Virus record (IMG/VR): IMGVR_UViG_2909298281_000006
Span: 1-37,935 of that record
DNA from: a virus
Lineage: Duplodnaviria > Heunggongvirae > Uroviricota > Caudoviricetes
Strand: one strand, 5' to 3'
Length of the DNA stretch: 37,935 nucleotides
Positions 6,203-37,935 of the stretch are shown one piece after another. The notes below the pieces were generated by a model. That model searched no databases. It was not told the origin of the DNA and saw only the letters and a program-made list of their open reading frames with translations. Each line of letters opens with the position of its first letter. Within the stretch, counting starts at the first letter, position 1. A program made the translations under genes and the position numbers.

Positions 6203-8350
6203 ATGACGGCAGAGTACATCAGGGACTGGCAACAACCGCGCCACGCAGTGGGGCGTGAAGGAACGGGGATCCCCGCTCCTGAATCCGCGCTTTCCTCCTG
6301 GCTGGATGCCTACCGGGCAGAGAACGAGCGCCGCCAGGAAATGGCTGATGCGGCGTTCTCCGCCACGCCGCTGGGCAACCTGATTAATAAAAGCCTGGAC
6401 GCACAGGAAAAACAGGACAAAACCATCACACTGGCAGGAGACGCCAGAAAGCAGGCACGCGGCGCGGTGGATGAAGCCATGGCCTCGCTGCGCCTGCTGC
6501 CGTCCTATCTGCGCGATCCGCTTATTCGCCACCTCTCCTTCCTGCGCAAAAAACAGGAATCTGACCGCCAGAAAGGTAAAAAGAACCAGCAGGCTGAACG
6601 CTACGCGCGCGGGACCCTGCGCAAAATATTCGAACGTCTGGACCGCACCGACCACCGCTGGCTGACACCGGGTTATCGCGCCCTTGCCGGACGCGAACGC
6701 CTGGATGATTTGCTTTACCTCCCGCAGCTCAACAAGCACCAGATACAGACGCTGGCCACCATGACGGCGGCGATGTTCAGCAGCACCTTCGAAAAACTCT
6801 GCGATGGCTTTGGCGCAACCGATGGCGAGCTGACCATGGATGTAACCCTGAAGGCGTATCAGATGCTGGCCCGCATGGCGTTACACCTGCACGCCATGCC
6901 TCCACATTATGACGCACTGACAACAGACAAAGACCGGAGGAACGAACCGGACACGGAGCTGCTGCCGGGCGCAATCCTTCGCCTGACCTGTGCGGAATGG
7001 TGGAAACGCAAACTGTGGCTGTTACGTTGCGAGTGGAGAGAAGAACAACTCCGCGCCGCCTGTCTGGTTTCCAGAAAAACATCGCCCTATCTGAGCCAGG
7101 ACGCGTTAAGCGAGTTTCGCGCACAGCGCGAGAAGACACGCGATTTCCTGAAAAGTTTCATGCTGGAAAACGAAGACGGGTTCACGATTGATCTCGAGAC
7201 AGTGTATTACGCGGGAGTAAGTAACCCGGTTCACCGTAAGGCAGAAATGATGGCCACCATGAAGGGACTGGAACTTCTGGCCGAAGCCCGTGGCGACAGA
7301 GCGGTGTTTCTGACTGTCACCTGCCCGTCAAAATACCACGCCACAACAGAGAACGGTCATCCGAATCCCAAATGGAACGGGGCCACCATGCGCGACTCCA
7401 GCGATTACCTGGTTAACACGTTTTTTGCGGCTGTCCGCAAAAAACTGAACCGCGACGGTCTGCGCTGGTATGGCATCCGCACGGTGGAGCCTCACCATGA
7501 CGGCACCGTGCACTGGCATATGATGGTCTTTGCTCATCCGGAAGAAATCGACACCATTGTGTCCCACACCCGCGATATTGCCATTCAGGAAGACCGCCAC
7601 GAGCTGGGCGATGACATAACTCCGCGCTTTAAGGCGGAGTACGTCGACGGCTCAAAAGGCACACCAACCAGCTACATCGCCACCTACATCGGAAAGAACC
7701 TGGACAGCCACGCCGTGGATGGCATCGACCCGAAAACGGGCAAGCCACGCGTTGACCACGAAACCGGAAAATCAATGGCCGAGAGCGTGGAGCGCGCCAT
7801 CGGCTGGGCGCGCCTTCACCGGGTCCGCCAGTTCCAGTTCTTTGGCATCCCCTCCCGTCAGGTGTGGCGTGAACTGCGCCGCCTTGCCAGCCAGATGGCA
7901 CGCAACCCGGAAGGCCCGCAACGACTGAAGGACGACGCAATGGATGCGGTACTCGCTGCCGCTGATGCCGGGTGTTTTGCCTCCTACATTGAAAAACAGG
8001 GTGGCGTACTTGTTCCACGCAAAGACTACCTGATTCGCACCGCCTACGACCTCGCCGATGAGCTGAACGATTACGGCGAACAGAGCGTACAGATTTACGG
8101 GATCTGGTCACCACTCATCGGGGAATCCTCCCGTGTGTGCACGCATCCGGATAACTGGAAGCTGGTAAGACGTAAACCGGAAGCGGAAGACAGCGCCCGC
8201 GAAAATGGTTTTGACCTTCAGGGCGGCCCTGCCGCCCTTGGACTCGTGGCAATAACTGTCCCCGTGTACAGGAAACGGACAACAACGGGACAGAACAGCC
8301 GGAGGAACGGCCAGCACCGTGGCCGCAGCTTCCTGAAGGCGTTGACGTGA
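6203..8350 (+). CDS. A: Replication initiator A (rolling-circle initiator/endonuclease)
   Basis: 715 aa, matching the size and position of P2 gpA; contains a Tyr-containing YIATYIGKNLD motif consistent with rolling-circle initiator active sites. Confidence 0.85.
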   Translation: MTAEYIRDWQQPRHAVGREGTGIPAPESALSSWLDAYRAENERRQEMADAAFSATPLGNLINKSLDAQEKQDKTITLAGDARKQARGAVDEAMASLRLLPSYLRDPLIRHLSFLRKKQESDRQKGKKNQQAERYARGTLRKIFERLDRTDHRWLTPGYRALAGRERLDDLLYLPQLNKHQIQTLATMTAAMFSSTFEKLCDGFGATDGELTMDVTLKAYQMLARMALHLHAMPPHYDALTTDKDRRNEPDTELLPGAILRLTCAEWWKRKLWLLRCEWREEQLRAACLVSRKTSPYLSQDALSEFRAQREKTRDFLKSFMLENEDGFTIDLETVYYAGVSNPVHRKAEMMATMKGLELLAEARGDRAVFLTVTCPSKYHATTENGHPNPKWNGATMRDSSDYLVNTFFAAVRKKLNRDGLRWYGIRTVEPHHDGTVHWHMMVFAHPEEIDTIVSHTRDIAIQEDRHELGDDITPRFKAEYVDGSKGTPTSYIATYIGKNLDSHAVDGIDPKTGKPRVDHETGKSMAESVERAIGWARLHRVRQFQFFGIPSRQVWRELRRLASQMARNPEGPQRLKDDAMDAVLAAADAGCFASYIEKQGGVLVPRKDYLIRTAYDLADELNDYGEQSVQIYGIWSPLIGESSRVCTHPDNWKLVRRKPEAEDSARENGFDLQGGPAALGLVAITVPVYRKRTTTGQNSRRNGQHRGRSFLKALT

Positions 8351-8994: not shown

Positions 8995-9804
8995 TCAACC
9001 TATCTTCTTATGAAGTAAAATTAATTTCTGTATTAATTTGGAATGAAACATAGATATATCAGAAATTCTTATTTCATTAGGCGAGTCTATATGATTGGAA
9101 ACTTCTTCCTCCAAGGAGTCACAAATACTTTCTAGATTTTCAATATCTGCATTTAATTCTGGAAAACTATTAAACAAATATAATGAATCCCGTAACTCTC
9201 CTAGTTTTGGTAAAAGAGTATTACTGAATACACTAAGAAACTCCTCTTCTGATAATGCCATGGAGTTTTTAAAACTTTGCACAACATCGAATGCCAACCC
9301 ATTAATTTTAGGCATAATTACTTCTCTTACCCAATATCCTTCATTAATAGCTTCTTTACGTTCTTTTCTATGTTGAACATAAGGAATAACAAAGGATGAA
9401 ACTAAGGCAAATAAAGAGATGCCAATAGAAATCCACTCTGGACCATTTTCCGGAACCTTTACAATATTATATATATCATGGGAATTTGGAACATCTTTGA
9501 AATAATTAGCAAATAAATCTTTTTTGTTATCCCTTGCCAGAGATAACTTATGAAAGGTGTCGTTTGCCTTTTCACAAAACATCAAGCCATCATTCGGGTT
9601 TCCGGATAACAAAAACGGTGATGATATACCACTAAGTCCTGAATCGGAAATATAAAAAGGCGTGTTTGGATAAAGTGACTCATTACATTCAATGTTTTCT
9701 TTATTGGAAAAATCTGTCACAGAGCAAGCTGCGGGGAATATAAAAAAAATGACAGACAGCGCTGTCATTTTGATTTGAAAAATATTTTTAAAAGAAGGGA
9801 ACAT
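8995..9804 (-). CDS. Cargo gene 3: bitopic membrane protein (N-terminal signal/anchor plus one central TM), candidate effector
   Basis: 269 aa; hydrophobic N-terminus MTALSVIFFIFPAACS, central TM WISIGISLFALVSSFVIPYV, acidic C-terminal domain; AGGAGAGG upstream; start overlaps the upstream gene by 17 nt; AT-rich. Confidence 0.7.
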   Translation of the reverse strand: MFPSFKNIFQIKMTALSVIFFIFPAACSVTDFSNKENIECNESLYPNTPFYISDSGLSGISSPFLLSGNPNDGLMFCEKANDTFHKLSLARDNKKDLFANYFKDVPNSHDIYNIVKVPENGPEWISIGISLFALVSSFVIPYVQHRKERKEAINEGYWVREVIMPKINGLAFDVVQSFKNSMALSEEEFLSVFSNTLLPKLGELRDSLYLFNSFPELNADIENLESICDSLEEEVSNHIDSPNEIRISDISMFHSKLIQKLILLHKKIG

Positions 9805-10132
9805 TTTTATGTAAGCCTCTCCTTACAGCTCTATCTAATTCAGAAAGCATACCTTCTTTATATTCACGACCATCAAGTACAGTGCGACTATAAAATTCGC
9901 TAGGCGAAGAAAATTTCGGCAAAACCGTTTCAAGCATACCTAGAAAGTATGAGCTTGATACAACAATTCCCTTGGGGATCAATAGATATAATCTATCATT
10001 ACTGGTTGTGCAAAATTTCCCTATATTAAAGTAATCATAGGCCTGGCGCCCATTAGAACGTCCAGCAAAAAGTTTCTTGTTACTATCTTTTACTAACTTA
10101 TTGAAATCTATGGTGATGTCAGCCATTTTCAT
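9788..10132 (-). CDS. Cargo gene 2: small STAS-like / anti-sigma-factor-antagonist-like protein (tentative)
   Basis: 114 aa; ITIDFNKLVKDS and GIVVSSSYFLGML resemble the STAS/SpoIIAA DSSG region (from memory); 10-nt gap to the upstream GHKL gene stop. Confidence 0.6.
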   Translation of the reverse strand: MKMADITIDFNKLVKDSNKKLFAGRSNGRQAYDYFNIGKFCTTSNDRLYLLIPKGIVVSSSYFLGMLETVLPKFSSPSEFYSRTVLDGREYKEGMLSELDRAVRRGLHKNVPFF

Positions 10133-10142
10133 GTACCTGTCC

Positions 10143-11522
10143 TCAAGTTCGCTGGGTGGCGTTTTCTGGTAGAGGAAAACGAATATTGATCATAACTCCA
10201 GGAAATCGAGCATCCTTCATACGCTTAAGATAGTTGCGATCCGGTTCAGATTCAAGCCCTACATCATTAAAAGGGTAAGTAAAAATGTCACTTTCCTCGT
10301 CATTAACCAACCTTTGCTTTAATTTATATGATCCATCAAAGTTAATATGAGTACTACCAGATATTAAAGTCATTTTTATCCCACCTTTAATATCTCTTCC
10401 CATTTTTTTAAGATTATCATGCATATCTTGAAATAACTTCAATAATTCAATTGTTCCGGTGCCAGAACTGTCAGTTTCTTTCTCGTTTTTACAACTCACC
10501 CGCCCTTGCAAGGCCGCTACTGTTGTTAATCCTTCCTTAAACATACCCTTTTTCTTAATATGCTTATTTATGTATGGATTAACTTGTTGACTTAATGAAA
10601 AATGATCCTCAGGTAAATTATCAAAAGTTTCGCTGATAGTTTTCCCAAAATTGAAAACAGCCAACTCACATATGGGGTTTCGTACGTTATTATTAACAAA
10701 ACCTCTCAAATACCAGCGTGGGCGTTGCTCTAACCCACAATGCCGCTCCGCATTATCAAGGAGTTCCCCCATGCAGGAAGTTAAATGCTTTTCTGCCTCA
10801 TGTACAAGTTTTAAATTATGATCATTTAAGCATTCGTTTATGTATGCGGTAAATTTTTCAGCAGTGACATTTTTTCTGTCATGGGCAAAGGCAGAAGCAT
10901 TCTCCTTTCCGATACTATCAGCAGAGAAGATTCGTTTCTTCGGATTCGCTTTTTTCGATGCTTCAGTAGAGTCCAGAACTTTACCTGGTGCAGCATTACT
11001 AATCTCTTTTACAAGCCCGACATCCCTGATAATTTCAAGATACTGTTCATCTTTAGGGTAGATACCATTAATCTGAATCATCGTATCTTTGAAATTTATA
11101 TTACTTTGCCTTGCTGCTGTAAGAGCAACACCTAATAGACACTCAAGACCAAGACAGTGTTTTTTGTTTTTCTTGTAATCAAAAATATATGATTTCCATT
11201 TACCTCTTGCAATTAATTTTGTGGCTGCACTAATAAATAGCAGAGATTTCTCTGGATTGTCATATAAGTCAAAATATTTAGGTATTAATATCTTCTCTGC
11301 GTCACGACGAAGAATTGATGAGTCATACTCTTTTATAATCGATATATTTTCAATGAACGTAGCGACTTGGTTTTGGACAGGAGTTGTTTCATCGGAAAAA
11401 CGAAGACTACCATTTTTCTCTTGCGCAGGCTTTTTTTTCTTAGCTCTCTCAACGCTACGAAGAAATCGCAACCATCCACGTAAAAAGGTTCTTTTAGAAT
11501 CTTCTTTATTGATTTTTTTCAT
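10143..11522 (-). CDS. Cargo gene 1: GHKL-superfamily ATPase / putative protein kinase
   Basis: Track ORF runs to TTG 11618; ATG at 11522 (MKKINKED) preferred. N-box-like ELLDNAERH and G2-like SSGTGTIELL; the N-terminal ~230 aa have no motif I recognise. Confidence 0.65.
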   Translation of the reverse strand: MKKINKEDSKRTFLRGWLRFLRSVERAKKKKPAQEKNGSLRFSDETTPVQNQVATFIENISIIKEYDSSILRRDAEKILIPKYFDLYDNPEKSLLFISAATKLIARGKWKSYIFDYKKNKKHCLGLECLLGVALTAARQSNINFKDTMIQINGIYPKDEQYLEIIRDVGLVKEISNAAPGKVLDSTEASKKANPKKRIFSADSIGKENASAFAHDRKNVTAEKFTAYINECLNDHNLKLVHEAEKHLTSCMGELLDNAERHCGLEQRPRWYLRGFVNNNVRNPICELAVFNFGKTISETFDNLPEDHFSLSQQVNPYINKHIKKKGMFKEGLTTVAALQGRVSCKNEKETDSSGTGTIELLKLFQDMHDNLKKMGRDIKGGIKMTLISGSTHINFDGSYKLKQRLVNDEESDIFTYPFNDVGLESEPDRNYLKRMKDARFPGVMINIRFPLPENATQRT

Positions 11523-11601
11523 TTCCAAATGTTCCTGCAAAGTTAACGTAGCCCACAAGGCGCTAAGTATACTTTCTGCTATATTTTTTTCACTATACAA
11601 A

Positions 11602-11628
11602 TGCACAATAGTGCACAAATTTGCACAA
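11602..11628. repeat. Three direct TGCACAA repeats with exact 10-bp phasing upstream of the cargo operon (fourth copy at 11694-11700)
   Basis: Read directly: TGCACAA at 11602-11608, 11612-11618, 11622-11628. Confidence 0.6.
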
Positions 11629-26410: not shown

Positions 26411-26503
26411 GGCTTTCATTTCAAACCATTGTAGTCCAGTTTTTTGTATAGTACCCTGCTCATTTCGAATGACATGAGTGATTTGGAATTTCAGGGTGCC
26501 ATT

Positions 26504-27682
26504 ATGAATGTTATTTCATCATTAAAACAGCTTAACAGACAGCGAAATATTAAAACAAAAAAGATAAAGACGAAGGCCAGACTGGCATTTCTAAAAATGC
26601 GATACAGAAGGAAAACATCATTACAGCCGGATAGTTATAAAACAGTGTGCATTTTCATGCACATGCAGGCCATTGGTGACGGCATCGTTACCTCAGGGTT
26701 TATTAAACAACTTCAAGAATCCGGCATGGTGGTATATGTGATAGCACCTCCAAGAGTATCATTCCTCTTTACTGATATTGTTGGCGTGGATGCCTTTATT
26801 TCTTACGAGAAAAATAAATTTAACGAACTAAAAGCAAAGATAAAAAAACTGAATGTAGATCTTGTTGTTGACTTCTCAAATTTTGATAACACAGCGATAA
26901 CCAGATTGCAAACACTACATTTACTTAAACCTAAACACTCTATCTGTTTTAATCATCCTGCCGTAACTATTTTTGATACAAATATAATCGATAATCGTTC
27001 CATTCACTCATCTGAAAGAATGAAAAAAGTTTTATCTTTACTAAAGATAAAAAATAATGATTACGCTGCAGCGCTTAATTTTGACAACAAAATATATGAA
27101 CCAGCAAATATTGTTGCAAATGAATTCAGGAAGAAAAACAAAAAATTAGTTATATTTAACCCTTATGGCTCTCAGAATAGCAGAACCTTGTCTGATGAAC
27201 AGATAAACAAAGTACTAGCTTACCTTAACAACCTTAAGGGATATCACACAATAGTTTTTAACATGGGAAAACAGATTAATCACAATGGATTGGATAATGT
27301 GTCTCTATCTCCATTTTCTGATGCAGGATGTTCATTTGCATTGGTTCGCCATGCTGATTTTGTTATAACTGTAGATACTGCTATTGTACATTTAGCCAGT
27401 GCATTAAACATTAGACAATACTGTATATATAATAACAGAATGCATGAAGGAAAATTCGAAAATAATATAGTGTGGGGGCCAAACAGCAAATTAGCGACTC
27501 AACTCACCACATCCGAACATCTAAGGTCTGAAGGGGGCGACGATATGCATAAATTCGACATAATGCTTTTAATTAATGCTATCAAACAAGATTTGACAAA
27601 CGATATACCGAATTACCACTCGGATTTAGGTTGTAAAAATAGCTCCAGAAACCCAGAATTAGAAAGTAGCAAATCTTTATAA
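26504..27682 (+). CDS. Glycosyltransferase family 9-like (heptosyltransferase-like) cargo gene
   Basis: Track ORF starts at TTG 26444; ATG 26504 preferred. AIGDGIVTSGFIKQL and VDTAIVHLASALN resemble GT9 N- and C-terminal motifs (WaaC/WaaF-like D-S-G-x-x-HLAAAL); AT-rich. Confidence 0.65.
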   Translation: MNVISSLKQLNRQRNIKTKKIKTKARLAFLKMRYRRKTSLQPDSYKTVCIFMHMQAIGDGIVTSGFIKQLQESGMVVYVIAPPRVSFLFTDIVGVDAFISYEKNKFNELKAKIKKLNVDLVVDFSNFDNTAITRLQTLHLLKPKHSICFNHPAVTIFDTNIIDNRSIHSSERMKKVLSLLKIKNNDYAAALNFDNKIYEPANIVANEFRKKNKKLVIFNPYGSQNSRTLSDEQINKVLAYLNNLKGYHTIVFNMGKQINHNGLDNVSLSPFSDAGCSFALVRHADFVITVDTAIVHLASALNIRQYCIYNNRMHEGKFENNIVWGPNSKLATQLTTSEHLRSEGGDDMHKFDIMLLINAIKQDLTNDIPNYHSDLGCKNSSRNPELESSKSL

Positions 27683-33364: not shown

Positions 33365-33520
33365 AGCTTCAGCCCCTTGTATCCGTTAAATGATTCGGCA
33401 ACAATCATCACCCACCACGCGCGTAATCTCACCCCTGCGCCGTTCTCCCGACCCGGCGACAACAAAAAGCAGTAACCCCCTCCGCACGCACATGCGACCA
33501 TGCCGCACAGGGAGGGAAAG

Positions 33521-34630
33521 ATGACCGACACCACCATGCAATTGCTCAGTCAGAGCACAGACCCCGTGAAAATGCCGGATTTTGATATTCTCGCGGAGGG
33601 TAAAACGCTGTCAGGCGTGGCAGAGCGCCTGATGAGCCTGTCACTGACCGACAACCGGGGATTTGAAGCGGACCAGCTCACCATCACGCTGGATGATGCG
33701 GATGGTCAGTTGCAGCTACCGCCACGGGGCGCGCGCCTGACGGTTCTCATTGGCTGGAAAGGCGAACCGCTGACAGAAAAAGGCTCTTACATTGTCGATG
33801 AAATCGCACACGAAGGACCGCCGGACAGGCTGACTGTTTCAGCCAGAAGCGCAGATTTTCGGGATGAATTTAACGTTAAACGTGAGGTGTCCTGGCATGA
33901 TGTGACCGTTGAGCGTGTGGTATCCGCCATCGCTCATCGGTACGGTCTGAAACCGCAAATCAGCGAAATGCTGATGCATATCGAAATCGACCACGCCGAC
34001 CAGACCGAAGAAAGTGACATGTCCTTCCTTACGCGCATGGCGGAAATGCTGGGCGCAATCACCACGGTAAAAAGCGGTAATCTGTTATTCATCATGCCCG
34101 GCGGTGGCGTGAACGCACAGGGCCAGCCGTTGCCATCGTTCGCCATCACACGCAGCAGCGGCGATCGCCATCAGTTCCGCATTGCTGACCGCGAGGCGTA
34201 TACGGGGGTACGCGCTTACTGGCTTGATCTTAATTACGGGAAAAAGAAAAAAGTCAGCGTGAAACGCCGCAAACCGCCAAAACCGAAAAAAGAGAAAAGC
34301 AGCAGCCGTGAAGGTGATTATATGGAAGGCGCGGAAGGCAATGTGTTTGTGTTACGCAAGACTTATCAGAACGAGCAGGCAGCAAGACGCGCAGCGGCGG
34401 CAAAGTGGCAACAACTACAACGCGGAGCCGCATCATTCTCCATCACACTGGCACGCGGACGCGCAGGACTCTACCCCGAAATGCATGGCACGGTAACAGG
34501 ATTTAAAAGCGAGATTGATAATCAGGACTGGATTATTGCAAAAGCCGAGCACACCATTGATAACAGCGGCTTTACCACTCAGCTTGAGCTTGAAGCAAAA
34601 ATCCCGGAATGGATAGCGGAAACAGAGTGA
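33521..34630 (+). CDS. D: Tail protein D (late control D family)
   Basis: ATG 33521 after GGAGGG; RGFEAD, EGPPDRLT, SADFR, SWHD, GDRHQF, GDY and ASFSITLA motifs match remembered P2 gpD. Confidence 0.85.
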   Translation: MTDTTMQLLSQSTDPVKMPDFDILAEGKTLSGVAERLMSLSLTDNRGFEADQLTITLDDADGQLQLPPRGARLTVLIGWKGEPLTEKGSYIVDEIAHEGPPDRLTVSARSADFRDEFNVKREVSWHDVTVERVVSAIAHRYGLKPQISEMLMHIEIDHADQTEESDMSFLTRMAEMLGAITTVKSGNLLFIMPGGGVNAQGQPLPSFAITRSSGDRHQFRIADREAYTGVRAYWLDLNYGKKKKVSVKRRKPPKPKKEKSSSREGDYMEGAEGNVFVLRKTYQNEQAARRAAAAKWQQLQRGAASFSITLARGRAGLYPEMHGTVTGFKSEIDNQDWIIAKAEHTIDNSGFTTQLELEAKIPEWIAETE

Positions 34631-34672: not shown

Positions 34673-34933
34673 ATGTTCCGTTGTCCGCTTTGTGGCGCAT
34701 CTGCCCGTATCCGCACCAGTCGTCCGGAAAATGATTCAAACACCGTGCGGCAAAAGTATTACCAGTGTAACAATCTGGAATGCGGCGTATGCTTCTCAAC
34801 ACTGGAAGCTTTCCATAAATTCACATCAAAACACGCCTCCGGCGTTCACTCTTCAGAAGATATCCCGTGGCATGATCTGCCAGCTTCACACAGGGGAAAC
34901 AATCAGATGAGTTTGCCTTTATCTCAGAATTAA
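34673..34933 (+). CDS. ogr: Late gene transcriptional activator, zinc-finger Ogr/Delta family
   Basis: MFRCPLCGASARIRTSR...YYQCNNLECGVCF resembles P2 Ogr (MFHCPLC...HQCQNVNC); AGGGAGG SD. Confidence 0.85.
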   Translation: MFRCPLCGASARIRTSRPENDSNTVRQKYYQCNNLECGVCFSTLEAFHKFTSKHASGVHSSEDIPWHDLPASHRGNNQMSLPLSQN

Positions 34934-34993: not shown

Positions 34994-35206
34994 ATGGTCG
35001 GAGGGAATACCCGAAGGCCAGATGTGGAAAGGCCCCGGAAAACATCCCTGTTTAACCGAGGCCCTAACCGCATTACCTTGACAAGTGAAAGGTTAGCGCC
35101 TCTCCGAAAAAGGAGCAAGTGCTATGTCGCAAAAATCGCTTACGGCCATCACGTTCTGCGTGACGGCAATCCTCATCATCTGGATGCTGCACGGTTCGCT
35201 GTGTGA
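34994..35206 (+). CDS. mok-like overlapping reading frame (70 codons) upstream of and overlapping the hok-like gene
   Basis: ATG 34994; 70-codon ORF ending inside the hok-like gene in another frame, mirroring the mok/hok arrangement. Confidence 0.3.
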   Translation: MVGGNTRRPDVERPRKTSLFNRGPNRITLTSERLAPLRKRSKCYVAKIAYGHHVLRDGNPHHLDAARFAV

Positions 35207-35263
35207 AATACGGATGAGTTTCTGGGGAGCGGAGTTTGCGGCGTTCTTACAGTGTAAGCAGTA
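35123..35263 (+). CDS. Hok/Gef-family type I toxin (46 aa)
   Basis: MSQKSLTAITFCVTAILIIWMLHGSLCEIRMSFWGAEFAAFLQCKQ: N-terminal TM then SLCEIR and EFAAF, the Hok signature (cf. Hok ...KSLCEIRYRDGHREVAAF...); GGAG 8 nt upstream. Confidence 0.65.
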
Positions 35264-35441
35264 AGGAAACCGCGACGGGGAGCAATCCCCCGGTCAATCA
35301 GTTGCCAGAGTAAGGTCGATAAGGCATCCTGTCTCATTCTATACCAGCTAATCAATTGACACATATCAATAAAAAGCCTGATAAAATCAAAATGTTTTGT
35401 TACAAATGTCAGCTAGTAGAGAGCCAAAGGAGGCAGATTAT

Positions 35442-35774
35442 ATGGCATTAATCAAATGTCCTGAATGCCAGAAAGAGGTGATCGATTCAGTATTGTCTTG
35501 CCCTGCTTGTGGCAAACAACTGAAAAAACTTAAACGTTCATTTTTTGGAGAACTCATTAAGTATTTTTTCATATTATTTAATATTTTTATAATCTACACG
35601 ATTTGTGTTGGGCTAAGAGAGGTTGGTGAAATAATAAACAACGCCACATCCGATGCCGAAAAAGCCGGTACAGTTATTGGTACGGGCTTAGGTTTAATTG
35701 CTATTGGAGGCTTATGGGTTATTGGCAATATCATTATCGGAAATTTAGTATTTCTTACTAAACCAAAGGGATAA
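35442..35774 (+). CDS. Zinc-ribbon membrane protein (110 aa)
   Basis: ATG 35442 after AAAGGAGG; CPEC...CPACG zinc ribbon followed by two hydrophobic helices; AT-rich. Confidence 0.55.
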   Translation: MALIKCPECQKEVIDSVLSCPACGKQLKKLKRSFFGELIKYFFILFNIFIIYTICVGLREVGEIINNATSDAEKAGTVIGTGLGLIAIGGLWVIGNIIIGNLVFLTKPKG

Positions 35775-35778
35775 CAAA

Positions 35779-36672
35779 ATGAAAAATATGATTATTTCTA
35801 TAGGTGCATCATTTATATCAATTAGTGTGCTACCTGCTCACGCAGCAACTGAGCATAATAACTTTAAGTCATCACTCCAGTGCCGAGCAATAGAAAATAA
35901 TAAAGAAAGACTTTCTTGTTATGATAAGTCAATACAACCGACTCGAACGACAGTTGCTGAAAAATTCGAAAGCAGAGATCAATGCCCTGATGAGAAAGAT
36001 GATGACAGACGTTTATCTTGTTATGACCGTTTTTTTTCTCCAACATTTACTCCGCCTGTAAGCTCAAAATCTAAATCGAAACAGCTAGTAACAACAGAGG
36101 CTCAGCAACCAAATCTTTCTGAGATATCTAAATGCCGAGCAGAAACCGATAAAGAAACTAGAGTAAACTGCTACGATAAACTATTTCCACAGGAAAAAGT
36201 TGCGCAATCTAAATCAAAATTAGAGAAAGCCACAGACACAGGAAAATGGCACACATCCATTACTACATCGCCAATTGATGATTCGAAAAATGTAATTTTA
36301 TCGTTAGAAAGTGATGATTATATAAGAACTCCATTTGGAGAAGCGGTTACCCCTACTCTGTTTATAGCTTGCCGAGAAAAGAAAACCGAAGTATTTCTTA
36401 ATTGGGATGTATATTTAGGCCTTGAACAAACCAGCATGCTGTATCGCCTTGATAAACAGAAAGCAGTTGAGCGAAACTGGCTAGTATCTACAGATACAAA
36501 GGCTGTTTTTTATAAAGGCAATGACATTAACTTCATCAGAAAACTAGCCAACTCAAACAAAATGTATGCAAAAATAACCCCTTATAATGAAAGCCCTGTA
36601 AGTGCAACTTTCAATTTAAACGGCCTGTCAACCACGCTAAAACCGCTTCAAGAAGCCTGTAACTGGAAATAG
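35779..36672 (+). CDS. Secreted protein with three Cys-containing repeats
   Basis: Signal peptide MKNMIISIGASFISISVLPAHA; three repeats C-x7/8-R-[LV]-x-C-Y-D-[KR] (RLSCYDK, RLSCYDR, RVNCYDK); AT-rich. Confidence 0.6.
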   Translation: MKNMIISIGASFISISVLPAHAATEHNNFKSSLQCRAIENNKERLSCYDKSIQPTRTTVAEKFESRDQCPDEKDDDRRLSCYDRFFSPTFTPPVSSKSKSKQLVTTEAQQPNLSEISKCRAETDKETRVNCYDKLFPQEKVAQSKSKLEKATDTGKWHTSITTSPIDDSKNVILSLESDDYIRTPFGEAVTPTLFIACREKKTEVFLNWDVYLGLEQTSMLYRLDKQKAVERNWLVSTDTKAVFYKGNDINFIRKLANSNKMYAKITPYNESPVSATFNLNGLSTTLKPLQEACNWK

Positions 36673-36701: not shown

Positions 36702-36741
36702 AGATAACACAAAGCCCGTGAAAACGGGCTTTGTGTTATCT
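36702..36741. terminator. Perfect 17-bp-stem hairpin after the secreted-protein gene
   Basis: AGATAACACAAAGCCCG-TGAAAA-CGGGCTTTGTGTTATCT. Confidence 0.5.
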
Positions 36742-36754
36742 ATAACTCGAAAAT

Positions 36755-36772
36755 GTGGTCACTGCGTGGACA
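36755..36772. repeat. Right copy of the 18-bp direct repeat GTGGTCACTGCGTGGACA (partner at 11..28)
   Basis: 17 of 18 identical to 11..28; its reverse-strand reading ...VHAVTTFSSYR-stop mimics the Int C-terminus ...VHAVSTGD-stop. Confidence 0.5.
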
Positions 36773-36939
36773 TGCGCCGATACAAATCCTTTTATATCAA
36801 AAAGTTAAATCAACATCTTTTTCATCAACAAGGATTTTCACGTTTGTGTTACCTGTATGAGACGAGAGTTAACCGGACAAGTGTGCCATAATCTCGCGGC
36901 CAGGCATACTTGCGAAGATTTCAGGTATAAGGATACGTA

Positions 36940-37935
36940 ATGATACAACCTATTTCCGGCCCTCCTCCTGGGCAACCACCAGGTCAGGGAGATAACCTGC
37001 CGTCTGGCGCGGGCAATCAGCCTTTATCCAGTCAGCAACGTACTTCGCTGGAAAGCTTAATGACGAAAGTGACCTCACTGACGCAACAGCAAAGAGCAGA
37101 ACTGTGGGCGGGTATCAGGCACGATATTGGTCTGTCGGGAGATTCACCGCTGCTTTCGCGTCACTTCCCTGCCGCTGAGCATAACCTGGCGCAACGTCTG
37201 CTGGCCGCGCAAAAAAGCCATTCTGCCCGCCAGCTTTTAGCGCAATTAGGGGAGTATTTACGTCTGGGGAATAATCGTCAGGCGGTCACGGATTATATCC
37301 GTCATAACTTTGGTCAGACGCCGCTGAATCAGCTCTCACCGGAGCAATTAAAAACCATTCTCACCCTGTTGCAGGAAGGGAAGATGGTTATTCCGCAACC
37401 ACAGCAGCGCGAGGCGACCGACCGTCCTTTATTACCGGCGGAGCACAATGCGCTAAAACAGCTGGTGACCAAACTTGCGGCGGCAACGGGGGAACCCAGC
37501 AAACAGATCTGGCAATCGATGCTGGAACTTTCCGGGGTGAAAGATGGCGAGTTAATTCCAGCGAAACTGTTTAACCATCTGGTGACCTGGCTACAGGCGC
37601 GTCAGACGCTAAGCCAGCAAAATACGCCGACGCTGGAATCACTACAGATGACGCTAAAACAACCTTTAGATGCCAGTGAACTGGCGGCGTTATCGGCATA
37701 TATCCAGCAAAAATATGGTCTTTCTGCGCAATCATCGCTTTCTTCTGCCCAGGCCGAGGATATTCTTAATCAGCTTTATCAACGGCGGGTTAAAGGGATT
37801 GATCCGCGTGTTATGCAACCGCTGCTTAATCCTTTTCCACCGATGATGGACACGTTGCAAAATATGGCAACGCGTCCCGCGCTGTGGATACTGTTAGTCG
37901 CGATTATCCTGATGCTGGTCTGGCTGGTTCGTTAA
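36940..37935 (+). CDS. Hypothetical tail-anchored membrane protein (Pro/Gln-rich N-terminus, C-terminal TM), probably host flank
   Basis: 331 aa; MIQPISGPPPGQPPGQ...; C-terminal TM ALWILLVAIILMLVWLV; AAGGA SD; window ends exactly at its stop. Confidence 0.6.
   Translation: MIQPISGPPPGQPPGQGDNLPSGAGNQPLSSQQRTSLESLMTKVTSLTQQQRAELWAGIRHDIGLSGDSPLLSRHFPAAEHNLAQRLLAAQKSHSARQLLAQLGEYLRLGNNRQAVTDYIRHNFGQTPLNQLSPEQLKTILTLLQEGKMVIPQPQQREATDRPLLPAEHNALKQLVTKLAAATGEPSKQIWQSMLELSGVKDGELIPAKLFNHLVTWLQARQTLSQQNTPTLESLQMTLKQPLDASELAALSAYIQQKYGLSAQSSLSSAQAEDILNQLYQRRVKGIDPRVMQPLLNPFPPMMDTLQNMATRPALWILLVAIILMLVWLVR

Follow-up and report, generated by a model that had tools for sequence, protein, structure and literature searches.

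A conserved accessory module of P2-like prophages encoding a predicted zinc-ribbon inner-membrane protein and a predicted exported VasI/TagO-family protein

Introduction

The VasI/TagO proteins of type VI secretion systems (T6SSs) (PF11319, TIGR03360; V. cholerae VCA0118) share a layout of three elements: a signal peptide, one hairpin of the form C-x8-RLxCYD, and a beta domain in which a pair of cysteines is conserved. E. coli T6SS-2 clusters carry tagO (PMC10562709), a 2026 review lists the T6SS protein as one of unknown role (PMC13584744), and our literature search did not find functional data on T6SS VasI. Here we describe a pair of genes near the right end of a 37,935-nucleotide (nt) stretch of viral DNA, IMG/VR record IMGVR_UViG_2909298281_000006 (the window), which is a P2-like prophage of E. 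coli that sits between the host genes pdxB and flk. The second gene of the pair encodes a 297-amino-acid (aa) protein with the same three elements as T6SS VasI/TagO, and the first encodes a 110-aa protein with a zinc ribbon and two transmembrane (TM) helices.

Phages also carry small membrane or periplasm proteins that block the entry of incoming phage DNA, among them P22 SieA, HK97 gp15, T4 Imm and Sp, and Ltp of the streptococcal phage TP-J34, and envelope exclusion genes of this kind are often neighbors of immunity or integration genes. In Ltp, small helical units are repeated on a tether. SieA of P22 is covered in PMC10883804.

A VasI-like fold has also been described in the SDIC4 systems of Serratia defence islands, which consist of SDIC4A and SDIC4B or, in subtype II, are arranged SDIC4C-D-E-B; SDIC4B, whose fold its authors call VasI-like on the basis of HHpred and AlphaFold, is sufficient to cut plating of several coliphages 10-200-fold in E. 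coli (bioRxiv 10.1101/2024.01.28.577318). Both genes studied here are already in databases under names (RefSeq names the 297-aa gene TagO), and one paper lists an orthologue as cargo; the phiSM orthologue is listed as a "T6SS VasI family protein" and T6SS-linked virulence factor (PMC6456863). We found no description in the literature of the constant zinc-ribbon pairing, of the fixed position between ogr and attR, or of the series of one, two, and three hairpins, and the paired, repeat-variable module appears to be undescribed.

Results

A gene pair that travels jointly in P2-like prophages

Our analysis leads us, with high confidence, to regard the pair as a conserved accessory module of P2-like prophages that encodes a predicted zinc-ribbon inner-membrane protein and a predicted exported VasI-family protein. 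Its features are as follows, with helices taken from AlphaFold2 (AF2) models.

35356..35387, + strand: candidate sigma-70 promoter of the pair, TTGACA (35356-35361), 18 nt, GATAAA, overlapping an extended -10 element TGATAAAAT (35379-35387); a sequence match from our own scan
35442..35774, + strand: gene for the 110-aa zinc-ribbon membrane protein (phrog_6586, E 1e-33; Zn_Ribbon_1; hydrophobicity; AF2)
35779..36672, + strand: gene for the 297-aa VasI/TagO-family protein with a predicted signal peptide (PF11319; AF2)
35881..35928, + strand (residues 35-50): hairpin repeat 1, CRAIENNKERLSCYDK (motif; AF2 helices 29-35 and 41-51)
35983..36030, + strand (residues 69-84): hairpin repeat 2, CPDEKDDDRRLSCYDR (motif; AF2 helix 75-85)
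36133..36180, + strand (residues 119-134): hairpin repeat 3, CRAETDKETRVNCYDK (motif; AF2 helices 113-120 and 125-135)
36703..36740, no strand assigned: candidate terminator, a perfect 16-bp inverted repeat with a 6-nt loop, GATAACACAAAGCCCG-TGAAAA-CGGGCTTTGTGTTATC, read from the sequence

A first-pass annotation made from the sequence had described two AT-rich genes 4 nt apart to the right of a hok-like gene, and this description holds: the TAA stop of the first open reading frame (ORF) is followed by CAAA and then by the ATG of the second, the left neighbor is Hok-like (phrog_251), and the guanine-plus-cytosine (GC) content of the pair is 36.4%, against 52.6% for gpD-ogr and 52.3% for flk. 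A mechanical ORF list places the start of the first gene at a TTG (35397), but we prefer the ATG at 35442, because an AAGGAGG Shine-Dalgarno sequence lies 8 nt upstream of it and all homologues begin with MAL[IV]xC[PS]EC and are exactly 110 aa long. A stricter consensus scan for promoters and terminators around the pair listed neither the promoter nor the hairpin, the latter having been missed owing to its weak T-tail, and our own scan found no Ogr-type late-promoter site (TGT-N12-ACA) upstream of the pair. Both genes are under purifying selection, with ratios of nonsynonymous to synonymous substitution (dN/dS) of 0.23-0.36 within E. coli; for the zinc-ribbon gene the ratio is 0.14 against the Enterobacter copy, while dS is saturated against the Klebsiella copies.

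The pair is variably present, being found in 240 of 5426 complete E. coli genomes, with related gpD-ogr sequences in about 1450. Nine of the 241 places that it occupies in E. coli are plasmid-borne. P2-like prophages that are 95-97% identical to the window across gpD-ogr-hok diverge from it at ~35330-35336 and reach their own attR without the pair, as in NU14 at serS, and P2 itself is not known to carry it. In most of the 5426 genomes pdxB and flk are adjacent, and because these empty sites match the window only from ~36819, the pair belongs to the insert, of which it is the final cargo ahead of attR. A reading of the two genes as a host chromosomal pair beside flk was ruled out by the same comparison. 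Phage records that contain the pair include Escherichia phages 500465-2 and PhiR44_2, Citrobacter phage Shae_phiSM, Xuanwuvirus P884B11, and Klebsiella phage 3LV2017 and its relatives, and the two genes travel jointly in P2-like phages of Escherichia, Citrobacter, Klebsiella, Enterobacter, Salmonella, Brenneria, and other hosts. The earlier suggestion of horizontally acquired cargo is thus borne out by the empty sites, the genome counts, and the phage records, with the amendment that the carrier is a P2-like prophage and not the chromosome; the alternative of conserved housekeeping genes of the host chromosome does not hold.

The two genes are closely linked to each other and to their position. 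Among 80 IMG/VR loci, ogr lies upstream in 67, the zinc-ribbon gene directly precedes the VasI-like gene in 64 of these 67 (with a 4-nt gap or a 4-nt overlap), and the predicted prophage nearly always ends with the VasI-like gene. The 19 records of the phage collection that have a full-length zinc-ribbon homologue are precisely those with the P2-type VasI gene, and at all 12 places looked up for one-, two-, and three-hairpin homologues the VasI gene follows ogr where a P2-like prophage ends. Prophages that bear the pair have varied attachment sites (flk, yccJ/wrbA, ytfP/tamB, fieF/pfkA, and a P-type ATPase gene). Ties of the pair to one integrase or att type were ruled out by this variety. No T6SS cluster was found at or near the pair or VasI loci at the 12 looked-up places, the 64 IMG/VR loci, or five distant loci, and the neighbors in the window (P2 tail genes, gpD, ogr, and hok on one side, flk on the other) are not those of a T6SS accessory (Tag) gene. 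Judged from its presence and absence among relatives, its deviant GC content, and its position between core genes and att, with the promoter and hairpin as sequence matches, the pair is a phage moron, that is, an independent accessory unit.

Several variants of the module were encountered. In an E. coli prophage lineage at ytfP/tamB (locus L008, 6001-7126), a two-hairpin VasI gene is convergent with a gene for a 98-aa protein with a zinc ribbon and a TM2 domain (PF05154), which replaces the 110-aa gene. In another P2-like prophage (L004, 8001-8732), a single gene right after ogr encodes a protein, P0051, with a zinc ribbon (residues 1-30), one TM helix, and a one-hairpin VasI part; this fusion was seen in one contig only and is possibly a deletion fusion or an assembly artefact. 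In IMG/VR contigs that are 95-99% identical to the window (L066-L069, L071, and L076), the VasI-like gene is frameshifted or truncated and the zinc-ribbon gene is intact. A prophage remnant on the 148-kb plasmid pTW10722_147 (NZ_CP035842.1; L128, 4827-7290) retains a truncated gpD, ogr, hok, the zinc-ribbon gene, and a TagO gene frameshifted into two ORFs.

The 297-aa protein belongs to the VasI/TagO family

The 297-aa protein begins with a hydrophobic segment that ends in AHA-A (MKNMIISIGASFISISVLPAHA|A), which we read as a signal peptide (aa 1-22) with predicted cleavage at AHA|A. It continues with three disulfide-type helical hairpins on disordered linkers and ends in a C-terminal beta domain of the IalB fold (aa ~155-297). 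The first-pass annotation had noticed three copies of a cysteine motif with a spacing of seven or eight residues, which it could not place; the three copies are there, with a spacing of eight in each, in the form C-x8-R-[LV]-x-C-Y-D-[KR]. The motif is not due to chance, because it is kept in all full-length homologues. Pfam VasI (PF11319) matches the protein with an E value of 3.4e-24 (85.9 bits against a cut-off of 26.5), residues 118-296 spanning the full model (1-184), and hairpins 1 and 2 give two further partial matches to the N terminus of the model. Judged by these profile matches, the protein is a member of the VasI/TagO family, and the previously unplaced motif is the N-terminal hairpin of that family, here in three copies. 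The NCBIfam equivalog model TIGR03360, for which a score above the threshold would imply the function of T6SS VasI, did not reach it (74.9 against a cut-off of 124.2 bits).

Hairpin number varies within the family. The 87 homologues fall into length classes of ~210-220, 250, and 297 aa, which correspond to one, two, and three hairpins; each hairpin has the form C-x11-C, and the C-terminal cysteine pair is always there. It is repeat 3 on which the start of the Pfam VasI model falls, and one-repeat relatives keep this copy only. The mature 297-aa protein has eight cysteines, or four candidate pairs, and the C-terminal domain, earlier described as ending in a cysteine, indeed has C294 but contains two conserved cysteines (C198 and C294), not one.

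A search with the hairpin region alone against 1.84 billion representative proteins gave few matches and no informative domain partner: family members, three secreted hairpin-only repeat proteins, and one tetratricopeptide repeat false positive. The three secreted proteins (P0238, P0239, and P0243) consist solely of tandem C-x8-RLxCYD hairpins that alternate, on linkers rich in proline, with a second type (C-RFxKEQDERLxC[YF]N), and because such proteins exist the hairpin can be regarded as an independent module.

In the AF2 model the beta domain is confident (predicted local distance difference test score, pLDDT, of ~90 for residues 155-297), and its fold is an IalB-type beta-sandwich that matches IalB and the flagellar-motor LPHT-ring component 8z5n_A. 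A search of the family profile against PDB sequences gave nothing below an E value of 0.3, and BFVD returned uncharacterised phage proteins only. The predicted signal peptide, the four conserved cysteine pairs, and the modelled beta-sandwich fit the original suggestion of a periplasmic, disulfide-stabilised binding protein.

The 110-aa protein is a predicted zinc-ribbon membrane protein

The 110-aa protein consists of a predicted CPxC...CPxC zinc ribbon (residues 1-28, with CxxC...CxxC at 6-23), a basic stretch, a first TM helix (TM1, ~37-58), an acidic 18-residue loop REVGEIINNATSDAEKAG, and a glycine-rich second TM helix (TM2, ~77-104). All four ribbon cysteines are invariant among the 110-aa homologues. 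The CPEC...CPAC sequence matches Pfam Zn_Ribbon_1 (PF13240) with an E value of 2.4e-5 and 24.4 bits, against a cut-off of 25, and 11 of 11 family members match the model (best E value, 1.1e-7). The hydrophobic helices appear as Kyte-Doolittle peaks at 38-56 and 85-103 and as AF2 helices at 34-67 and 71-106, in agreement with the layout of a zinc ribbon and two TM helices proposed earlier. By the positive-inside rule, the ribbon and the C terminus would be cytoplasmic and the loop periplasmic. The relatives of the protein are solely phage proteins of unknown function (phrog_6586), beside subthreshold zinc-ribbon and DrpB-like matches, and a Foldseek search with the model against the PDB returned just generic NZF/RanBP-type zinc fingers with E values above 1.

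The prophage and its neighborhoods

The integrase gene ends at window position 1, where its stop codon forms the window start, so that attL lies outside the window; the tail genes, gpD (33500-34630), ogr, the Hok/Gef-like gene, the pair, and flk follow, with ogr as the final core phage gene ahead of the accessory end. Host flk starts at 36940 (NCBIfam equivalog, E 1e-151).

34673..34933, + strand: ogr, the P2 late-gene activator (Pfam Ogr_Delta, E 5e-14; ogr/Delta-like in a near-identical RefSeq record)
35124..35264, + strand: Hok/Gef-like gene, 46 aa (phrog_251, E 1.3e-22; Hok/Gef family protein in RefSeq)
36819..36830, no strand: approximate prophage/host junction on the attR side, about where homology to the empty pdxB-flk site begins and homology to phage records stops

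The Hok/Gef-like gene is common to many E. coli P2-like prophages, with or without the pair. A search for an attL/attR repeat inside the window gave a single 13-nt match, CACTGCGTGGACA, at 16-28 and 36760-36772; one copy lies inside the 3' end of the integrase gene and the other between the hairpin and the attR junction, and ~0.16 chance matches are expected in the regions compared.

In some relatives a RES-domain gene (Pfam RES, E 4e-12) stands between hok and the zinc-ribbon gene, as in E. coli EC03 (L002, 4081-4908), and because of this insertion we regard the hok-to-pair interval as one that takes further cargo. Three other loci (L059, L061, and L064) have ~1.5 kb extra between ogr and the pair. 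Outside the P2-like setting, the repressor is immediately followed by a VasI-domain gene in Brucella phage BiPBO1 and Klebsiella phage ST11-VIM1phi8.1, a Roseibium phage has such a gene next to CI, and IMG/VR contigs have it between a helix-turn-helix repressor and the integrase on one strand, with an AAA_15/AAA_21 ATPase gene next in L121. In a Nevskiales metagenome-assembled genome (L028, 4654-6504), a VasI-family gene lies 75 nt downstream of, and is co-directional with, the gene for a CAP12/Pycsar-type TIR-domain protein (E 5e-34). A tail-region island in Pasteurella phage Pmp14 (L016, 997-5040) encodes a hairpin-less VasI-domain protein (164 aa), two small signal-peptide-like proteins (181 and ~172-185 aa), a 39-aa hydrophobic membrane-like peptide, and a 652-aa protein without annotated function.

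Elsewhere in the window, the stretch from the replication gene (6203-8350) to the portal-side genes, which is the known gpA-gpQ defence hotspot of P2-like phages, contains three AT-rich ORFs on the - strand (8995-11618; 269, 114, and 491 aa; 31-39% GC). None of the three has a Pfam or PADLOC match, and together they are a candidate uncharacterised defence system. After the tail-fibre genes, an AT-rich 412-aa ORF (26444-27682, + strand; 32-34% GC) matches Glyco_transf_9 (heptosyltransferase) weakly (E 3.7e-6) and is possibly a lipopolysaccharide-modifying conversion gene at the tail hotspot.

Discussion

Proposed function of the module

We tentatively propose, by analogy with known exclusion and defence genes, that the pair could be a lysogen-expressed module for envelope-level superinfection exclusion or anti-phage defence. 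The pair would be driven in the lysogen by its own sigma-70 promoter, and the VasI-like protein would be exported and oxidised in the periplasm as the active component. The acidic periplasmic loop of the zinc-ribbon protein might keep it near the inner membrane, where it would block an incoming envelope-crossing machine, most probably at the tail tip or DNA-entry step of superinfecting phages. Hairpin number (1 to 3) could tune reach or avidity, and the zinc-ribbon protein, with its ribbon in the cytoplasm, may anchor or stabilise its partner or transduce a signal.

Expression in the lysogen is suggested by the lack of an Ogr-type site, the sigma-70-like promoter, the strong Shine-Dalgarno sequence, the closing hairpin, and the location of VasI genes by the repressor or integrase elsewhere. 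A role in defence is supported by the neighbors of the genes in relatives (the RES gene, the AAA_15/AAA_21 ATPase gene, and the CAP12/Pycsar-type TIR gene), by the precedent of SDIC4B, whose fold is described as VasI-like by its authors and which protects alone, and by the status of the pair as prophage cargo, with its two genes linked as a module and no T6SS cluster at the loci examined.

Several observations weigh against this proposal. The link to SDIC4 rests on its authors' HHpred and fold statement, which our comparisons did not reproduce: with SDIC4 sequences taken from the supplement of bioRxiv 10.1101/2024.01.28.577318, blastp against SDIC4A, SDIC4B, and SDIC4E gave no match to the pair, a comparison by hhalign of 23 SDIC4B homologues with a 42-sequence VasI-like profile reached a probability of 2.4%, SDIC4B had no match in our local Pfam copy, and SDIC4A is an unrelated secreted 150-aa protein, whereas the partner here is a zinc-ribbon membrane protein. 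PADLOC v2 found no match for the two proteins or hok, and the surveys of P2 defence hotspots, which list gpA-gpQ, int-att, int-primase, and tail slots, include neither the ogr-att slot nor the pair module (PMC9122126; PMC13586616, of 2026). The defence cargo of P2 typically swaps fast, a pattern that a single module so conserved from genus to genus fits less well, and the AT-rich unit could be silenced. The predicted fold shared with IalB and the LPHT-ring component indicates a periplasmic interaction module and no specific activity.

Alternative explanations

The family name raises the alternative that the periplasmic VasI-like protein guards the lysogen from T6SS spikes or R-type tailocins, or modulates a host T6SS, which we consider unlikely. 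P2 tails and T6SSs are related contractile machines. Also in its favor, the family (PF11319, TIGR03360) was named for genes in T6SS clusters, tagO is part of E. coli T6SS-2 (PMC10562709), and the phiSM orthologue has been counted as a T6SS-linked virulence factor (PMC6456863); yet the 297-aa protein scores 74.9 bits where TIGR03360 asks for 124.2, no T6SS gene is near the examined loci, and with the role of T6SS VasI/TagO listed as unknown (PMC13584744) there is no mechanism to borrow.

The fold likeness to IalB would instead suit a host-fitness or virulence conversion factor, an IalB-type envelope protein that changes surface, adhesion/invasion, or envelope-stress properties. We hold this to be improbable to a similar degree, since the mechanism of IalB is itself undefined, the two proteins are alike in fold alone (16% identity), phages of environmental, non-pathogenic hosts (such as Roseibium, Pantoea, and Brenneria) commonly carry the gene, and this reading does not account for the close association with a zinc-ribbon membrane protein that faces the cytoplasm.

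A role in the phage's own lytic cycle or entry, such as lysis timing or passage of the tail across the periplasm, seems to us quite improbable. Widely diverged P2-like phages keep the module (dS is saturated between the E. coli and Klebsiella copies, and dN/dS is 0.14-0.36), it follows the late genes gpD and ogr on the same strand, and its glycine-rich second helix, as we read the sequence, resembles small pore or holin-type helices; against this, relatives 95-97% identical in gpD-ogr-hok (NU14) do without the pair, an Ogr-type late promoter is missing, frameshifted copies persist in otherwise intact-looking prophage ends, and in other phages the VasI gene lies within a repressor/integrase operon. 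An addiction module, in which the small glycine-zipper protein is a toxin checked or triggered by its periplasmic partner, like or with hok, is the least credible of these explanations, for although the pair adjoins a Hok/Gef gene, a RES toxin-domain gene occupies the same site in relatives, and the two-TM protein has GxxxG-type spacing, the products are predicted mainly in different compartments, a zinc-ribbon/VasI fusion would be unusual for a toxin-antitoxin system, and the persistence of frameshifted VasI genes beside intact zinc-ribbon genes argues against a lethal unopposed toxin.

On a broader and highly speculative level, proteins of the VasI fold might be general periplasmic binders of contractile or tail-like injection tips: T6SSs would use one for spike passage, and temperate phages would have acquired it, increased its hairpin number, and paired it with a zinc-ribbon membrane protein to form a two-compartment sentinel that blocks, or senses and signals, penetration by foreign tails, tailocins, or T6SS spikes. 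Were this true, TagO/VasI would gain its first function, and envelope-level immunity would gain a new class, encoded at the ogr-att end of P2-like phages.

Envelope-level exclusion or defence is the function that we tentatively favor. P2-like prophages are among the commonest in enterobacteria and are a mapped reservoir of anti-phage systems. The "type VI secretion" label that the module has inherited is probably misleading. A clear phenotype would correct the annotation in many RefSeq and GenBank records, including clusters of 846 and 352 sequences, offer a first insight into what the VasI/TagO/IalB-like fold does, and extend prophage-mediated exclusion by a mechanism that acts in the periplasm; if there is no phenotype, the pair stays an ordinary uncharacterised moron.

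Comparison with known systems

In contrast to the T6SS VasI/TagO proteins, which it resembles in its domains, the 297-aa protein has three hairpins, not one, and is encoded at the end of a P2-like prophage beside a zinc-ribbon membrane partner, with no T6SS genes near. IalB (PF06776; PDB 3DTD) has no hairpin repeats and is not phage-borne, and the 297-aa protein stays below the Pfam IalB cut-off (16.0 against 22.1 bits).

The 110-aa protein has its counterparts in the TM2-domain proteins (PF05154) and DrpB/YedR (NF038392), which share the layout of a zinc ribbon and two TM helices and are families without an established phage-related function. A TM2-domain version even stands in for the 110-aa protein beside the VasI gene of one E. 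coli prophage lineage, but the alignment between the two is limited to the zinc ribbon (hhalign probability of 79% over 27 residues), and the DrpB model scores far below its cut-off (E 0.004; 17.5 against 50).

With SieA, gp15, Imm, Sp, and Ltp the likeness is an analogy in position and compartment only, no sequence or fold relation having been found. As for SDIC4, the pair is on present comparisons not a member, because there is no relation by blastp or hhalign, the Pfam family is another one (SDIC4B homologues match PF27224, not PF11319, and SDIC4B lacks the hairpin repeats), and the partner is unrelated. SDIC4 is located in chromosomal LptG-YjiA islands beside BrxR, whereas the pair is carried by P2 prophages and no BrxR/WYL gene was found in its neighborhood. 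At most the two would share fold and compartment, SDIC4B beginning, in our reading, with an apparent signal peptide, and they are alike as short operons of Enterobacteria that lie outside T6SS clusters and encode a protein with a signal-peptide-like start, for which a VasI-like fold is, in the case of SDIC4B, the description given by its authors.

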